Shown piece by piece: positions 21,212-49,332 of a stretch of 64,000 nt of DNA. How positions within the stretch are numbered: position 1 is the stretch's first letter; the number at the start of each line of letters is the position of its first letter. Below the pieces are notes generated by a model. It was not told the origin of the DNA. It did no database searches and was given only the letters and a program-made list of their open reading frames with translations. This DNA is from an uncultured Actinomycetota bacterium (GTDB lineage Bacteria; Actinomycetota; UBA4738), in assembly GCA_963770955.1 (NCBI GenBank), contig CAVYRK010000011.1, positions 906,745-970,744 of the forward strand. Direction: 5' to 3'. A program made the position numbers and the translations under genes.

Positions 21212-21967
21212 TCAGCTTGACCCTCCTGCCAACGGATCCTCGATTTCCCCGAAGTGCTCGGCCTGCTTCAGCTCAACCTCTCCTTGACGGTGAAGTTCCA
21301 GGATGGCCAGGAACCGGACCACCACGTCGATGCGCTCCAGGTCGTCCTCGAGCAGGTCCCGGAAGCGCGCCTCGCTCATCTCTGCCAGCCGCCGGCGCAG
21401 CGTCTCCAGGGCCCCCTCCACGGTCGCGCGGATCGGGGTGACGTGGGACAGGTCGACGGCGGGCGGAGGCGCCAGGAGCTCGTCCGCCAGCGCCCCGAGG
21501 TCCCCCGCGGACACCTTGGCCAACACGTCCGGGTACAGGTGGGCGAACTCGGCCGGCGGCCCCGCCATCCGGGCCATCATCAGGGACGCCTCGGCGATCC
21601 GGTCGCTCAGTCCCGCGGCGGCCAGCCGGAAGGCCGCCAGCTCGATGGTCCTGGCGTACAGCAGGTCGGGCGAGGCCCCGCCCAGCAGGTCCTCCTCGGT
21701 CTCCACCGTCGGACGGGGCAGCAGCCGCCCCACCTTCAGCTCCAGCATGACCGCGCACACCGCCAGGAACCAGGTCGACTCCTCCAGGGTCCAGGAGATC
21801 ATCTCCTCGCTCCCACGCCGCAGGAACGACTCGGTCAGGAGGGCGACCGGGACGTCGCAGACGTCCACGCGCTGGTCCAGGATCAGCTCTGCCAGCAGAC
21901 GGAACGGGCCCGAGAACACGGGCAGCTCCACCAGGAACTCCTGGTCCGTGGGCGCGGATTCCGTCAT
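21212..21967 (-). CDS. scpA: Segregation and condensation protein A
   Basis: FLVELPVFSGPFRLLAELILDQRVDVCDVPVALLTESFL..VVVRFLAILELHRQGEVELKQ. Confidence 0.88.
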   Translation of the reverse strand: MTESAPTDQEFLVELPVFSGPFRLLAELILDQRVDVCDVPVALLTESFLRRGSEEMISWTLEESTWFLAVCAVMLELKVGRLLPRPTVETEEDLLGGASPDLLYARTIELAAFRLAAAGLSDRIAEASLMMARMAGPPAEFAHLYPDVLAKVSAGDLGALADELLAPPPAVDLSHVTPIRATVEGALETLRRRLAEMSEARFRDLLEDDLERIDVVVRFLAILELHRQGEVELKQAEHFGEIEDPLAGGSS

Positions 21968-22107
21968 CGCGAGGAGGGGGAGTCGAAGCAAGGGCCCCGC
22001 CGGGGCCCCGGAACCGGCACGAAAGGCGCTCTCGAGTCGATGGGCGTCATGCTATCCACGCCACAGGGGCCCTTCAATGACCCGGCGCGCAACCGGGCGG
22101 GGAGGGC

Positions 22108-22752
22108 TCAGATGCAGGAGAACCCGGCCGCGAGGTTGCAGATGCCGTTGCCGATGAGTCCGACGAAGCTCAGGATCGGCCCCCCGAAGATGAAGAGGAC
22201 CACCAGCATGAACAGCGCCAGGTACTGCTCGAGGTTGAGGAAGACGTCCTTCGCGCGCCCGGACAGGAACCGCGCCACCACGCGGCCACCGTCCAGGCCC
22301 GGGATGGGCACGATGTGGAAGGCGGCCATCGCGACGTTCACCTGAAGGCACCGGATCAGGAACAGGGCCACCTGCCCCGACTTCGCCACCCGCAAGAGCG
22401 CCCCGAAGACGAACGCCAGGGCTACGTTCGCCAGGATGCCCGCCACGGCGATCCAGATCGCGTCGGCGTCCTTTCGCCGCAGGTTCCACGGGTTGAGCGG
22501 CATCTGCTTCGCATAGGCGAATGGGATCCAGAGGAGCTTTCCCGCGAGCAGCATCGGCAGGAGGAGGATTCCCGGAAGGACCAGCGTCCCGAACGGGTCC
22601 ACGAGCGGCTTCGGGTTGAGGGTCAGGCGCCCCATCGCGCGAGGGGTCTGGTCGCCGAAGCGGGTCGCCACCCACGCGTGGGCGTACTCGTGGAGGTCGA
22701 CGGCGATCAGCAGCCCCACGACGAAGTAGATCGTGTTCTCGATGTTCTGCAC
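22108..22752 (-). CDS. Site-2 protease family (peptidase M50) membrane metalloprotease
   Basis: HExxH motif (VDLHEYAHAW), polytopic, with a downstream AFHIVPIPGLDGG motif. Confidence 0.85.
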   Translation of the reverse strand: MQNIENTIYFVVGLLIAVDLHEYAHAWVATRFGDQTPRAMGRLTLNPKPLVDPFGTLVLPGILLLPMLLAGKLLWIPFAYAKQMPLNPWNLRRKDADAIWIAVAGILANVALAFVFGALLRVAKSGQVALFLIRCLQVNVAMAAFHIVPIPGLDGGRVVARFLSGRAKDVFLNLEQYLALFMLVVLFIFGGPILSFVGLIGNGICNLAAGFSCI

Positions 22753-42334: not shown

Positions 42335-42453
42335 TCTCGGCGGCGACCTACTCTCCCACCCCGTTGCCAGGGCAGTACCATCGGCGCTGGAGGGCTTAAC
42401 TTCCGGGTTCGGAATGGGACCGGGTGTCTCCCCTCCGCAATGACCGCCGAAAC
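42335..42453 (-). rRNA. rrf: 5S ribosomal RNA
   Basis: Sense sequence is GTTTCGGCGGTCATTGCGGAGGGGAGACACCCGGTCCCATTCCGAACCCGGAAGTTAAGCCCTCCAGCGCCGATGGTACTGCC..GGGAGAGTAGGTCGCCGCCGAG. Confidence 0.92.
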
Positions 42454-42856
42454 GGTCTCTCCTCGCCGAGCCGACCCAAAGAGCCTGCCCTGCAAGGAAT
42501 CTTGCGAGGGTGCGAGCTTCGAGCCACATGCGTGGACTCGGAACTCGATAGCGAGCGCGAGCAAAGGTCAAGTCCTCGGCCTATTAGTACCGGTCGGCTG
42601 AACACGTTGCCGTGCGTACACCTCCGGCCTATCTACCTCGTAGTCTTCGAGGGGCCTTACTCCTTGCGGATGGGAAGCCTCATCTTGGGGCGAGCTTCGC
42701 ACTTAGATGCTTTCAGCGCTTATCCCTGCCGTACGTGGCTAACCAGCCATGCCGCTGGCGCGACAACTGGCACACCAGAGGTACGTCCGCCCCGGTCCTC
42801 TCGTACTGGGGGCAGCTCCCCTCAAGCTTCCTACGCCCACGGCGGATAGGGACCGA

Positions 42857-43576
42857 CACGTCTGTTACCACCGAACGGCCATCCGTTCGGGGGCCGGGTC
42901 ATTTCTGCCCGGCTCTGCATGTCGCCATGCAGGTCGGACCATATCTTCACCTCAGACCGTGAGGTGTTCGGCGTATGGTCTCTGAGGATTCTGGCTGCCT
43001 ACACACGATGGATCCGGCGATAGCGGCCGCCTCCGTTCATGGAGACTGCACGTTGCCGAAGGCATCGGAAGCCCTCTGCGCTCAGGTGCTCGCCTTGCTC
43101 CATCGCTCTCACGATGGACACGAAGGTCTCGAGCTCCTGCTGTTTCGCGCTCAGAAGGGGGTTCGTCTCGAAGAATGGGATGACCCTGGTCAGAAGGTCG
43201 GTTCGCTTGCGAACCACGTACACCAGCGTCGCGTCGGCCGAGCCGGCATGGTTCTGCCGGATGCGGCCGCAGCCGAGGCGTCGCGCTCTCAGGTCGAGGA
43301 CCTGACGGCGCTCCGCGTTCTGGCTGACATGGAACTCAGGGACGAGTTGCCAGCCGGCAACCGTCGATGCGTTCCTCTGTACGGCGACGTGGAACGTTCC
43401 CTCCCCGTCGACGAAACCCGCGATGTAGGCATCCAGCCTTTCCTGCTGATTGACCGCACCTGACGCATTGTCACTGCACACGACGGGAAGCTAACAGCAG
43501 CCTCCGACGTGGCGAGTAGCGCAGGATGCTCGGCGTTTCCAGCATTTGGCCGAATTTAGAGACAGCAAGGTCTCCT
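42857..43576 (-). mobile_element. Group I intron in 23S rRNA after E. coli U2604, carrying a LAGLIDADG ORF
   Basis: 720-nt insertion between GAGACAGU and UCGGUCCC. The guide sequence GCUGUCUC pairs with the 5' exon GAGACAGU, including the U.G wobble. Core elements are P AAAUGCUGGAAAC, Q AAUCAGCAGG, R CCUCAGAGACCAUA and S GAAGAUAUGGUCC. The last nucleotide is G. Confidence 0.88.
42999..43481 (-). CDS. LAGLIDADG homing endonuclease (single-motif type) inside the L2604 intron
   Basis: Contains YIAGFVDGEGTF and family blocks LGCGRI, VIPFFETNPLLSAKQ and MNGGG. The ORF lies between the intron Q and R elements. An ATG in the P element (43545) is one frame off and may be the true start. Confidence 0.85.
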   Translation of the reverse strand: MCSDNASGAVNQQERLDAYIAGFVDGEGTFHVAVQRNASTVAGWQLVPEFHVSQNAERRQVLDLRARRLGCGRIRQNHAGSADATLVYVVRKRTDLLTRVIPFFETNPLLSAKQQELETFVSIVRAMEQGEHLSAEGFRCLRQRAVSMNGGGRYRRIHRV

Positions 43577-43613
43577 ACTGTCTCACGACGTTCTAAACCC
43601 AGCTCGCGTACCG

Positions 43614-43652
<39 letters not shown>

Positions 43653-43653
43653 G

Positions 43654-43694
<41 letters not shown>

Positions 43695-43913
43695 TCCGTC
43701 GATGTGGACTCTTGGGAGCGATCAGCCTGTTATCCCCGGGGTACCTTTTATCCGTTGAGCGACGGCCCTACCACGAGGAAGCCGTCGGATCACTAGGCCC
43801 TGCTTTCGCACCTGCTCGACATGTCTGTCTCGCAGTCAAGCACCCTTGTGCCCTTGCACTCGACGCCTGATTGCCAACCAGGCTGAGGGTACCTTTGGGC
43901 GCCTCCGTTACTG

Positions 43914-43950
<37 letters not shown>

Positions 43951-44202
43951 GCGCTGTCCCTGACCCGGATCACGGGTCGAAGTTAGAGTCCCAGCACACG
44001 AAGAGCGGTATTTCAAGGTTGACTCCACTCGAGCCAGAGCCCGAGCTTCAAAGTCTCCCGCCTATCCTACGCAACGCGTACCAAAACCCAACACCAAGCT
44101 GCAGTAAAGGTCCCGGGGTCTTTCCGTCCTGCCGCAGGTAACGAGCATCTTTACTCGTCGTGCAATTTCGCCGAGTCCCTGGTTGAGACAGCGCCCAAGT
44201 CG

Positions 44203-44249
<47 letters not shown>

Positions 44250-44588
44250 GGATTCTGTTACTTGAAGACCGGTCGAGGCTGCACGATCCACTCGATCGGC
44301 GGGCTGGTCGTTTCCGCCAGCCTCCTCACGTCGCCGTGAGGTCCGGACCATCTCATCCTCTTCCGGGTCGAAGGAAGAGGGCCGGCATATGGTCTCTGAG
44401 GATTCCCGATCCCTATCGGAGGGCTCGGGCCTTTCCTGCTGGTTTTCCGCACCTCTCACGTTGTCACTGCCCGACTCACTCGGACGAGTAGTGGAGGATC
44501 CACCGGGTTTTCCAGCATATAGCCGGCTGCTCACCGCACCATCACTGATGCGGGGGGCAGCGCCCCCGGCCTGCCTGGGGGCTTTCCT
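44250..44588 (-). mobile_element. ORF-less group I intron in 23S rRNA after E. coli U1931
   Basis: 339-nt insertion between CCUAAGGU and AGCGAAAUUCC. It has the same P/Q/R/S core as the other two (UAUAUGCUGGAAAAC, AACCAGCAGG, CCUCAGAGACCAUA, GAUGAGAUGGUCC). A short hairpin replaces the endonuclease ORF. Boundaries are ambiguous by 2 nt because of an AG repeat. Confidence 0.8.
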
Positions 44589-44596
44589 ACCTTAGG

Positions 44597-45380
<784 letters not shown>

Positions 45381-46309
45381 CGCTTCGGTTCAGAGCTTCG
45401 CTTCCCGAAGGAAGCTAACCCATCCCCTTAACGTTCCGGCACCGGGCAGGCGTCAGTCCATATACAGCGCCTTACGGCTTCGCATGGACCTGTGTTTTTA
45501 GTAAACAGTCGCTTGGGCCTGGTCTCTGCGGCTCCCTCCAGCTCGGGACGCGAAGTCCTTCACCGGTAAGAGCCCCCCTTCTCCCGAAGTTACGGGGGCA
45601 ATTTGCCGAGTTCCTTAACCAGGGTTCTCTCGATCGCCTCGGTATTCTCTACCTGCCCACCTGCGTCGGTTTGGGGTACGGGCACCTCGAATCGCTCGCT
45701 AGAGGATTTTCTTGGCAGCATGGGATCACTCGCTTCGCCTGAAGCGGCTCGGCGTCGTGTCTCGGAGTTAGTGCCCTCCCGGATTTGCCTGGGTGGGCCT
45801 CCTACGCACTTGCCCCAGGACGACCATCGCCTGGGTCGAGCTACCCTCCTGCGTCCCCCCTTCGCTTCCCTAGTACCGAGCGGGTCGGTAGCCCCTCCAA
45901 GGTGGAGGGATTTCCTTAGCAGCTCGGATTTGGGATGGGCGCGATTGAGGTGGTACTGGAATATCAACCAGTCGTCCATCGCCTACGCCTCTCGGCCTCG
46001 GCTTAGGGCCCGACTAACCCTGGGCGGATGAACCTTCCCCAGGAACCCTTGGGCATTCGGCGGAGGGGTTCCTCCCCCGTCTTTCGCTACTCATGCCGGC
46101 ATTCTCACTTCCGACGCGTCCACGGCTGGGTTTTCCCGCCGCTTCACTCGCGTCGGAACGCTCCCCTACCGATCCCTCGACCTGGACGTACACGGTCGCC
46201 CGTGTACGCCGGGTTATTCGAGGAATCCCGCAGCTTCGGTGCTGTGCTTGAGCCCCGCTACATTGTCGGCGCGGAATCACTTGACCAGTGAGCTGTTACG
46301 CACTCTTTC

Positions 46310-46344
<35 letters not shown>

Positions 46345-46384
46345 CTGGGCAACTCCACATCCTTTCCCACTTAGCACAGACTTC

Positions 46385-46417
<33 letters not shown>

Positions 46418-46917
46418 CTCGGCTACGGAGCTTAGCCCCCGCAGCCTCACTCCCGGGCTCTTGAGTATCGGCATTCGGAGTTTGACTGAGATCGGTAAGC
46501 TTGTAGGCCCCCTAACCCAATCAGTGCTCTACCTCCGATACTGAACGCCCGAGGCTGCCCCTAAAGGCATTTCGGGGAGAACCAGCTATCACCGAGTTTG
46601 ATTGGCCTTTCACCCCTATCCACAGGTCATCCCCCAGGTTTTCAACCCTGGTGGGTTCGGCCCTCCACGAGGTCTTACCCTCGCTTCAGCCTGCCCATGG
46701 ATAGATCACTCGGCTTCGGGTCTAGAGCACGCGACTAAACGCCCGGTTAGGACTCGCTTTCGCTACGGCTTCGTCTTATGACTTAACCTCGCCACGTACC
46801 ACTAACTCGCCGGCTCATTCTTCAAAAGGCACGCCGTCACCCCCCGCTGGTTGCCCAGCGAGGTAGCTCCGACAGCTTGTAGGCTCACGGTTTCAGGTGC
46901 TATTTCACTCCCCTCCC

Positions 46918-46963
<46 letters not shown>

Positions 46964-47803
46964 GCCAGGGAGTACTTAGCCTTGGGGGGTGGGCCCCCCG
47001 GATTCACGCGGACTTGCACGTGGACCGCGCTACTCGGGAACACCACTCGGAGGCCGGTCGGCTTTCGCCTACAGGGCTGTTACCTTCTATGGCCGCTCTT
47101 TCCAGAGACATTTGGCTAGCTGTCGGCTTTGTAACTCCGTGATGGCGCTGCCGCACCATCGTGTGGGTCCCACGACCCCCGCATAGAAACGCCGGCAGGC
47201 TATCGCGCTATGCAGGTTTAGGCTCTTCCCCGTTCGCTCGCCGCTACTGAGGGAGTCGCTGATTGCTTTCTCTTCCTCGCCCTACTGAGATGTTTCACTT
47301 CGGGCGGTTCCCTCCTCATGCCCTATGTGTTCAGGCACGGGTGACTGGGCATGACCCCAGCCGGGTTTCCCCATTCGGACACCTTCGGATCAAAGCCTTG
47401 TTGGCGGCTCCCCGAAGCTTTTCGCAGCCTCACGCGTCCTTCATCGGCTCCTGGCGCCAAGGCATCCACCGTAAGCCCTTTACAACTTGACCGTTAGATG
47501 CTCGCGCTCGCTATGGAGTTCTCAAGGTCCATGCCCCGGACGCACGAGAAGACACCCTTCGGGGGCGTCTCCATCGTGGAGGTCCGTGGCTCGAGGGCTC
47601 GCACCCTCAGGACCGGACAGTGTGCCCGGCCGGCGTCCCGCCGCGTCCGCTTCCCGTTCCACTCCCGATCGCTCGGGCGTACTGGACGAAGCGTCTTTGG
47701 CGATCTTCCGGCCGAATAACCAGTGGATTGATTGGAGCTCCCGCCTCGTCGTGACCGTTCACCGCTGAACGGCTCGTCTCGCGGTCGGGATATGCCAATT
47801 GCT

Positions 47804-49332
<1,529 letters not shown>

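Follow-up and report, generated by a model that had tools for sequence, protein, structure and literature searches.

The 23S rRNA gene analysed here, from an uncultured soil actinobacterium, is interrupted by two group I introns that stand only eight base pairs apart, and the question raised by this locus is how two ribozymes can share so short an exon and still leave an intact rRNA. The window (the whole stretch of DNA that was analysed, 64,000 nucleotides) contains one rrn operon, located by Rfam on the minus strand, with the 16S gene at 47810-49332, the 23S gene at 42564-47492 and the 5S gene at 42335-42451. In the source assembly (G000; 3.19 Mb, 11 contigs, about 71% G+C) the exon flanks match one place, giving a 23S copy number of one. 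With no second rrn copy in the assembly, the gene must yield a working rRNA. The best explanation, which we consider probable, is that two independent and complete group I introns lie 8 bp apart, and that each would be directed by its own guide and removed one by one, with the octamer retained.

The 23S gene was detected over the full Rfam model (RF02541, 2537.9 bits) and spans 4929 nt, compared with 2925 model positions; three inserts explain 1813 nt of this excess. Intron A (754 nt, window 44597-45350, minus strand) follows U1923 (window 45351) and was detected with RF00028 at 40.1 bits (E = 3.7e-8). Intron B (339 nt, without ORF, 44250-44588, minus strand) lies at the U1931 site when its junctions are set in register 0, and was detected at 38.6 bits (E = 1e-7); its alternative register, +2, corresponds to 44248-44586 on the minus strand. 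A third group I intron (720 nt, 42857-43576, minus strand) follows U2604 (32.2 bits, E = 8e-6). The scores of all three are under the Rfam Intron_gpI gathering score of 50. Core blocks are common to the three introns, and the group I core (P3, P4-P6, P7, P8 and a AAGAUAUAGUC-like J8/7) is present in introns A and B, where the pairing of P3, P7 and P8 was seen by direct reading. The intron sites (after U1923, at U1931 and after U2604) were assigned by E. coli numbering, CCTAAGGT representing nt 1924-1931 and GTGAGACAGT nt 2595-2604. Placement of the third intron at the I-CreI site, 2593, was rejected, as E. coli numbering leads to U2604. The P1 of this intron is formed by GAGACAGU/GCUGUCUC and its last base is G; besides the core blocks, it has the tail GGUAACAGACGUG in common with intron A.

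Lying within the 23S gene at window positions 44589-44596, the octamer between introns A and B reads ACCTTAGG on the plus strand and CCUAAGGU on the minus strand. Upstream of intron A, exon 1 ends in ...UAACUAUAACGGU, and downstream of intron B the exon resumes with AGCGAAAUUCC, A1932 being window position 44249. Beyond A1932-G1933 the 3' exon reads CGAAAUUCC, and exon joining with both introns out would read ...AACGGUCCUAAGGUAGCGAAAUUCC. By itself the octamer is statistically unremarkable (2 occurrences in the window, 0.33 expected) and it is the sequence context that makes the case. In a genome of the same genus (G002; 16S 98.6% identical), exon 1 is joined directly to CCTAAGGT, which is followed by intron B, and intron A is absent. 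Conversely, a genome of the same family (G015) carries a homologue of intron A, 77% identical, followed by CCTAAGGTAGCGAAATTCC, and has no intron B. The two introns thus show a precise presence/absence polymorphism among related genomes, and since G002 lacks only A and G015 lacks only B, they represent independent insertions. Rfam, the E. coli alignment and these empty sites together bear out the first-pass annotation, which had identified the octamer as 23S nt 1924-1931 between L1923 and L1931 group I introns, with exact coordinates.

Its size, which had been given as 8 nt, stands at the DNA level by alignment and is doubtful at the RNA level, intron B having no terminal G in the U1931 register. 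Both intron B and its 3' exon begin with AG, so the DNA leaves the junctions of this intron ambiguous over 0 to +2 nt. As RNA, the spacer could therefore be 8-10 nt, the micro-exon of the +2 register being the 10-nt CCUAAGGUAG at 44587-44596. That the tandem layout or the odd 3' end of intron B is an artefact of misassembly or indels in a long-read metagenome bin is very improbable, as a like layout and a like 3' end are found in many independent assemblies, short-read ones included (L079, L080, L093), and the exon letters around the inserts are perfect (...GCGGCCGUAACUAUAACGGU / intron A / CCUAAGGU / intron B / AGCGAAAUUCCUUGUCGGGU).

How far the octamer is shared follows from the internal guides. 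That of intron A, UUAGAG-GCCGUU (45333-45344, minus strand), was found by direct reading. Its GCCGUU part (45338-45333) pairs with AACGGU in P1 (duplex -7.8 kcal/mol), closing on a U1923.G wobble, and UUAGAG (45344-45339) has CCUAA as its P10 partner (-2.0 kcal/mol), C1924 and C1925-A1928 pairing with UUAG(A)G with one A bulged. The guide of intron B, CGCU/GCC (44556-44562, minus strand), was placed by comparing more than 100 U1931-site introns from a pattern scan, in which its position is conserved. In candidate-phyla-radiation (CPR) copies the guide is obvious, UUCGUU-GCCUUAG, and the homologous position in actinobacterial-type copies reads (C)GCU-GCC; because of this homology to the clear GCCUUAG, the GCC further 3' was taken as the guide of intron B. 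A first P1 model (CCU..GGU with GCCCCCAGG) was rejected, as the stretch involved is a hairpin with compensatory changes in relatives.

The P1 of intron B consists of 3 bp only, GCC pairing with G1929-U1931 and U.G at U1931 (-2.2 kcal/mol). It can be lengthened by 2 bp by the intron's own first AG, giving -5.2 kcal/mol. P10 is formed by CGCU with A1932-G1935 (AGCG), the alternative for CU being to pair with that same first AG. In both introns, then, the U at the end of the 5' exon is paired with a guide G (AACGGU/GCCGUU in A, GGU/GCC in B); with the +2 junction of intron B, cleavage would take place at a G-C pair and this feature of P1 would be absent. As had been proposed, the octamer serves both ribozymes by guide reading and duplex energies, with 1924-1928 as P10 partner of intron A and 1929-1931 as P1 partner of intron B, the arrangement of Coxiella/Twort-type tandems in which a short exon carries the P10 of one intron and the P1 of the next. 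The two footprints do not overlap in this copy, so the pairings need not compete for bases; in the tandems of some other genomes (L080, L122, L078), P10 of the L1923 intron reaches G1929-G1930 and would overlap. A fold of aligned relatives also showed a possible helix in which GCUGC of the guide region is paired with GCAGC, just ahead of P3; such a helix conflicts with P1 and P3.

Splicing, its order, retention of the micro-exon and the origin of the pair are what we infer from this anatomy. Each ribozyme would find its splice sites by its internal guide, and introns A and B would be excised singly, in either order, the micro-exon being kept in the mature rRNA. Either intron occurs alone in relatives, which suggests removal one at a time with no forced order, and since a stretch of 8-10 nt would not fit both active sites at once, the two excisions should be sequential events. 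Removal of intron A first is most likely, as it precedes intron B in transcription and the exon bases of its P10 would be available before the core of intron B exists. The concern of the first-pass annotation over splicing order and folding interference is eased to the extent that the pairings use separate parts of the octamer and impose no obligatory order, but it returns as another risk, in that the guide of intron B fits the U1923 site.

This risk arises because GGU ends both 5' splice sites and the 3-bp P1 of intron B is weak, making exon skipping possible. On the end of exon 1 the guide of intron B reaches -2.8 to -3.1 kcal/mol, compared with -2.2 kcal/mol on its own site, and the sole discrimination between the two GGU sites is the 2-bp AG extension. 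Introns A and B and the octamer might then leave as one unit, regularly or as a frequent side product. Exon skipping is documented around a 34-nt exon in Coxiella and a 23-nt exon in phage Twort (PMC10136302), and one scanned locus, L070, holds a hybrid intron with the 5' half of the B type and the 3' half of the A type between two octamer copies. We nevertheless hold joint removal to be improbable, since the only 23S rRNA would lose eight universally conserved bases, pairing at the proper site is favoured by the AG extension (-5.2 kcal/mol) and the tandem layout persists in at least 15 other genomes. Removal of the introns one by one is the reading followed here.

Intron B itself is a complete ribozyme by its pairings. 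P3 (GCCGGC/GCCGGC), P7 (GACC/GGUC) and P8 were read directly, and an alignment fold of 29 ORF-less relatives recovered P2, P4-P6, P8, P9 and P9.1. J8/7, the 3' strand of P7 and the J7/9 triplet (GAUGAGAUGGUCC-GGA) occupy 44342-44357 on the minus strand. An optional 5' hairpin, GCCCCC...GGGGGC with loop GCAGG (44562-44582, minus strand), shows compensatory changes across relatives, and its loop is complementary to 23S 1961-1965. In loci L021-L132 nearly every hairpin loop is a fragment of CGUGCAGG, which is complementary to 23S 1961-1968 (CCUGCACG), a site about 30 nt into the 3' exon. The length of the match to 23S 1961-1968 was no greater than in shuffles (5.5 vs 5.2), though the matches cluster there.

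Compared with its homologue in G002 (L005), intron B is 96% identical over the first 245 nt, with compensatory changes in the P2 hairpin. After GGUCC, at the 3' strand of P7, only 39 of 92 positions are identical and the sequences are unrelated. Within a single genus, then, the 3' domain (J7/9, P9, P9.1, P9.2 and tail; window 44250-44345) was exchanged, taking the canonical terminal G with it.

The 3' end of intron B is where the size of the micro-exon is decided. Intron A ends in a terminal G (omega-G, window 44597), as does the third intron, whereas intron B in the U1931 register ends in C and reaches a G only if the junction moves 2 nt, to exon G1933. Its tail, GUAACAGAAUCC (44250-44261, minus strand), is directly followed by exon A1932-G1933 (window 44249-44248). 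The last three intron bases, UCC (44252-44250), form the 3' strand of P9.0 by pairing with GGA of J7/9, which follows GGUCC. The last base was read in the 87 U1931-site introns listed for which both junctions were available, and was G in 52, A in 19, C in 12 and U in 4, the last group including the hybrid L070; among the matches listed (window 44250-44261; loci L015-L133), 35 of 87 therefore end in a base other than G in the rRNA-restoring register. All 34 short-3'-domain copies among the matches listed end in G, and the three bases before it pair with J7/9, covarying as UAG/CUA, GAG/CUC, AUA/UAU, ACG/CGU, UUC/GAA, AGG/CCU, GGA/UCC and CGA/UCG. Where a long-tail copy has C or U as its last base, the last three bases themselves form P9.0 (GGA/UCC here; GAG/CUC, GAG/CUU, GAU/AUC and GGU/ACC elsewhere), a pairing found in at least 10 other C/U-ending relatives with five pair combinations. 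For one C-ending copy, L080, P9.0 was not called, the motif search having matched an upstream site; direct reading gave GUU/AAC.

With the exon AG included, intron B has the layout P9.0-A-G at its 3' splice site, the same as canonical long-tail relatives (AUU-A-G; GUU-C-G in G002), the exon A-G occupying the position of their spacer and terminal G. Close relatives are distinguished by a single A, present or absent ahead of the exon AG, as in intron ends reading ...AAUCC and ...AAUCCA. Such a difference could be tolerated only with G1933 as the functional G, which suggests that 3' cleavage follows G1933. For the rRNA to be correct, the 5' splice site would in turn have to follow the intron-encoded AG, with a micro-exon of 10 nt. 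We give this placement of both junctions at +2 a little less than an even chance. It accounts for P9.0 in the last three nucleotides, as in 10 other C/U-ending copies, and for the canonical P9.0-A-G layout, but it puts 5' cleavage after a G-C pair, 2 bp beyond the only U.G wobble (at U1931), and so goes against the most firmly established rule on where group I introns are cut at their 5' end; the guide of intron B is moreover identical to that of canonical copies. The AG start of intron B was dropped as an argument for the +2 register, since canonical short-tail copies begin with AG just as often (73%). In the copies without terminal G, P7 was inspected for a change in its G-binding base pair, and the G-C pair proved unchanged. 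Extended to the group, a tentative reading, to which we lean somewhat less, is that a widespread set of U1931-site introns has lost its own terminal G, and that in the present copy G1933 would serve instead, the first AG staying in the rRNA as a natural 2-nt slide. Splicing without any terminal G would be as unorthodox as such a slide with G-C cleavage.

The other placement, register 0, would have intron B cut exactly at U1931/A1932 without a terminal G, P10 and P9.0 choosing the 3' site and the micro-exon measuring 8 nt. In its favour, U1931 forms the U.G wobble opposite an invariant GCC with P10 (AGCG/CGCU) abutting, a G stands exactly there in 52 of the 87 homologues listed, including the near-identical G002 copy, and the tail from GUAACA (5-7 nt) fits the canonical copies in that register. 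The last base, C, is however itself paired in P9.0, leaving the G-site slot without an occupant, and the one-A difference before the exon AG of close relatives would shift or remove the terminal base. On balance register 0 is unlikely for intron B. The A-ending copies are compatible with a simple terminal A in register 0; the Coxiella Cbu.L1917 intron, too, reportedly ends in A.

A further possibility is that intron B is not accurately spliced at all, being either retained in 23S rRNA or excised without ligation, so that the rRNA would be fragmented and the octamer never joined to A1932. The missing canonical terminal G would agree with this, as would the A, C or U at the end of 35 of 87 listed relatives, suggestive of a loosened constraint on that base. 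There is also a precedent, the L1931 intron of Simkania, which is said to remain unspliced in 23S rRNA. P9.0 nevertheless still covaries in copies without terminal G (five combinations), the ribozyme core is intact with compensatory changes relative to G002, and the insertion lies at the subunit interface of the product of a sole rrn copy. We rate inaccurate splicing as rather doubtful.

The layout is not confined to this genome. The pattern scan for U1931-site introns returned at least 119 loci, mostly from Actinomycetota (mainly Acidimicrobiia and Thermoleophilia-type bins); the remaining loci listed are from Planctomycetota, candidate-phyla-radiation bacteria and others. Tandems were recognized by CCTAAGGT being flanked immediately by an L1923-type 3' tail (...GUAACAnnnnUG) upstream and an L1931-site intron downstream. 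The search of other genomes proposed with the first-pass annotation found the same 8-nt layout in at least 15 other species-level genomes (L023, L024, L033, L036, L042, L045, L053, L078, L080, L088, L090, L097, L105, L119 and L122), so that it is recurrent. In L078, whose 23S is 92.7% identical to that of the window, the roles are reversed, an ORF-less L1923 intron being followed by an endonuclease-bearing L1931 intron. Longer shared exons occur as well, of 12 nt in an L1911+L1923 pair (G040, L006), 14 nt in an L1917+L1931 pair (G027, L012) and 20 nt in L1911+L1931 pairs among related genomes. Anatomy, pairings, empty sites and recurrence are established.

Several scan loci deserve separate mention. 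Close pairs in helix 69-71 with 12-, 14- or 20-nt exons occur in related and in unrelated metagenome genomes, further loci being L031, L038, L060, L079, L081, L084, L107, L129 and L132. Locus L070 (CAWJPT010000008.1) carries a single 808-nt hybrid, with an L1931-type 5' half, an L1923-type 3' half and the octamer CCTAAGGT on each side. Such a hybrid is the product that would be expected of recombination between A-only and B-only alleles, and it may be dead, as its P3 strands are mismatched. In the tandem of L090 (CAVYFE010000015.1) the first six bases of the L1923 intron are followed at once by a stretch of over 40 A, either an assembly artefact or a real poly-A insertion. In G015 (L004, about 1869-2140) a further intron is found near 23S 1951-1955, in helix 71, with a junction that needs one U added or dropped.

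As to origin, intron A is taken as a mobile unit with its own LAGLIDADG gene, and intron B has no endonuclease gene. The ORF of intron A (44700-45317, minus strand) encodes up to 205 aa and contains a single LAGLIDADG domain at aa 48-151 (Pfam PF00961, 68.9 bits). Its best PDB matches are I-SmaMI/I-OnuI halves (4e-39 for I-SmaMI), and I-CeuI (2ex5) was matched at E = 1.3e-9 (41 bits), a distant sequence relation despite the common insertion site. This ORF can begin at an AUG within the P3/J3-4 block (UAUAUGCUGG) and ends within P8/J8-7, entering the P7/P3'/P8 region and thereby overlapping the ribozyme core; a coding sequence overlapping the core has likewise been noted for the Synechococcus L1917 intron (PMC1995217). 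The third intron also holds a LAGLIDADG ORF (42999-43481, minus strand, 160 aa, PF00961, single motif), the nearest solved relatives of its product being I-SmaMI/I-OnuI-type halves, with I-CeuI distant. On the RNA strand of intron B, no ORF of at least 60 aa with a LAGLIDADG domain was found, and many of its U1931-site relatives carry an endonuclease gene (versions of about 700-790 nt).

These genes bear on the proposal that the split makes the rrn copy immune to both cognate endonucleases by removing an I-CeuI-type recognition sequence. Two cognate enzymes are not at work in this genome, as intron B encodes none, and "I-CeuI-type" holds for the insertion site but not for the protein sequence, which is I-SmaMI/I-OnuI-like. 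Any intron-bearing allele is without an intact target, which would make the predicted immunity generic. The tandem is probably the outcome of homing, one intron having entered an allele in which the other was already present. The B-only allele keeps 10 bp, CCTAAGGTAG, to the right of the intron A insertion point, and the enzyme of intron A could plausibly still cut it, offering a route from the state seen in G002 to the tandem.

As a layout the tandem adds little, being already on record and recurrent; in uncultured Actinomycetota and other metagenome genomes, closely spaced group I introns prove common around 23S helices 69-71. The single unusual feature is the absence of the usual final G from intron B. 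In this respect intron B is a clean case, as the congener G002 has a 96%-identical core with a canonical 3' domain, a contrast that bears on two alternatives, a terminal G that can be dispensed with and a junction shifted by two bases. The series of micro-exons of 8, 12, 14 and 20 nt in related genomes provides natural material on two ribozymes sharing a very short exon, and on what prevents exon skipping between two 5' sites that both end in GGU.

Among known systems, the intron SnLSU.1 of Simkania negevensis reportedly occupies L1931 and carries an endonuclease ORF. It is like intron B in its identical insertion site in a bacterial 23S gene and is a reported precedent for an unremoved intron, but differs in having the endonuclease ORF and in being a single intron. 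One of the two Coxiella 23S introns is likewise reported to be without terminal G; the atypical end there is reportedly an A, at L1917, compared with C at the 1931 site here, where the neighbouring bases form P9.0. In Coxiella burnetii, Cbu.L1917 and Cbu.L1951 flank a 34-nt exon and exon skipping was observed (PMC10136302). The two systems have in common a bacterial 23S gene, a single rrn operon and two group I introns around a short exon, and differ in sites, in exon length (four times longer in Coxiella) and in subgroups (IB2/IA3). Introns 2 and 3 of phage Twort orf142 flank a 23-nt exon that is skipped or included (PMC10136302); here, too, a short exon is enclosed by similar group I introns, but they are of the IA2 subgroup, the gene is a protein-coding phage gene and the exon is longer.

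In the 23S gene of Synechococcus sp. C9, LAGLIDADG introns are located at L1917, L1931 and L2593, the first two 14 nt apart (Haugen 2007, PMC1995217). Here again a bacterial 23S gene holds three group I introns at classic homing sites with single-motif LAGLIDADG genes, but in the cyanobacterial host all three introns have an endonuclease and the sites are 1917/1931/2593 instead of 1923/1931/2604. For the archaeal contig KP308720.1, intron IB4.7 is placed at LSU/1923 (21440-21763) and IB4.15 at LSU/1931 (21772-22514) (Nawrocki, Jones & Eddy 2018, PMC6125680); in the available part of that paper the coordinates are tabulated and the micro-exon is undiscussed. This contig comes from an archaeal metagenome and has the ORF-less intron at 1923 and the long one at 1931, but by comparison of coordinates it shares with the present locus the identical two insertion sites in one LSU gene and the same 8-nt gap between them (21764-21771).
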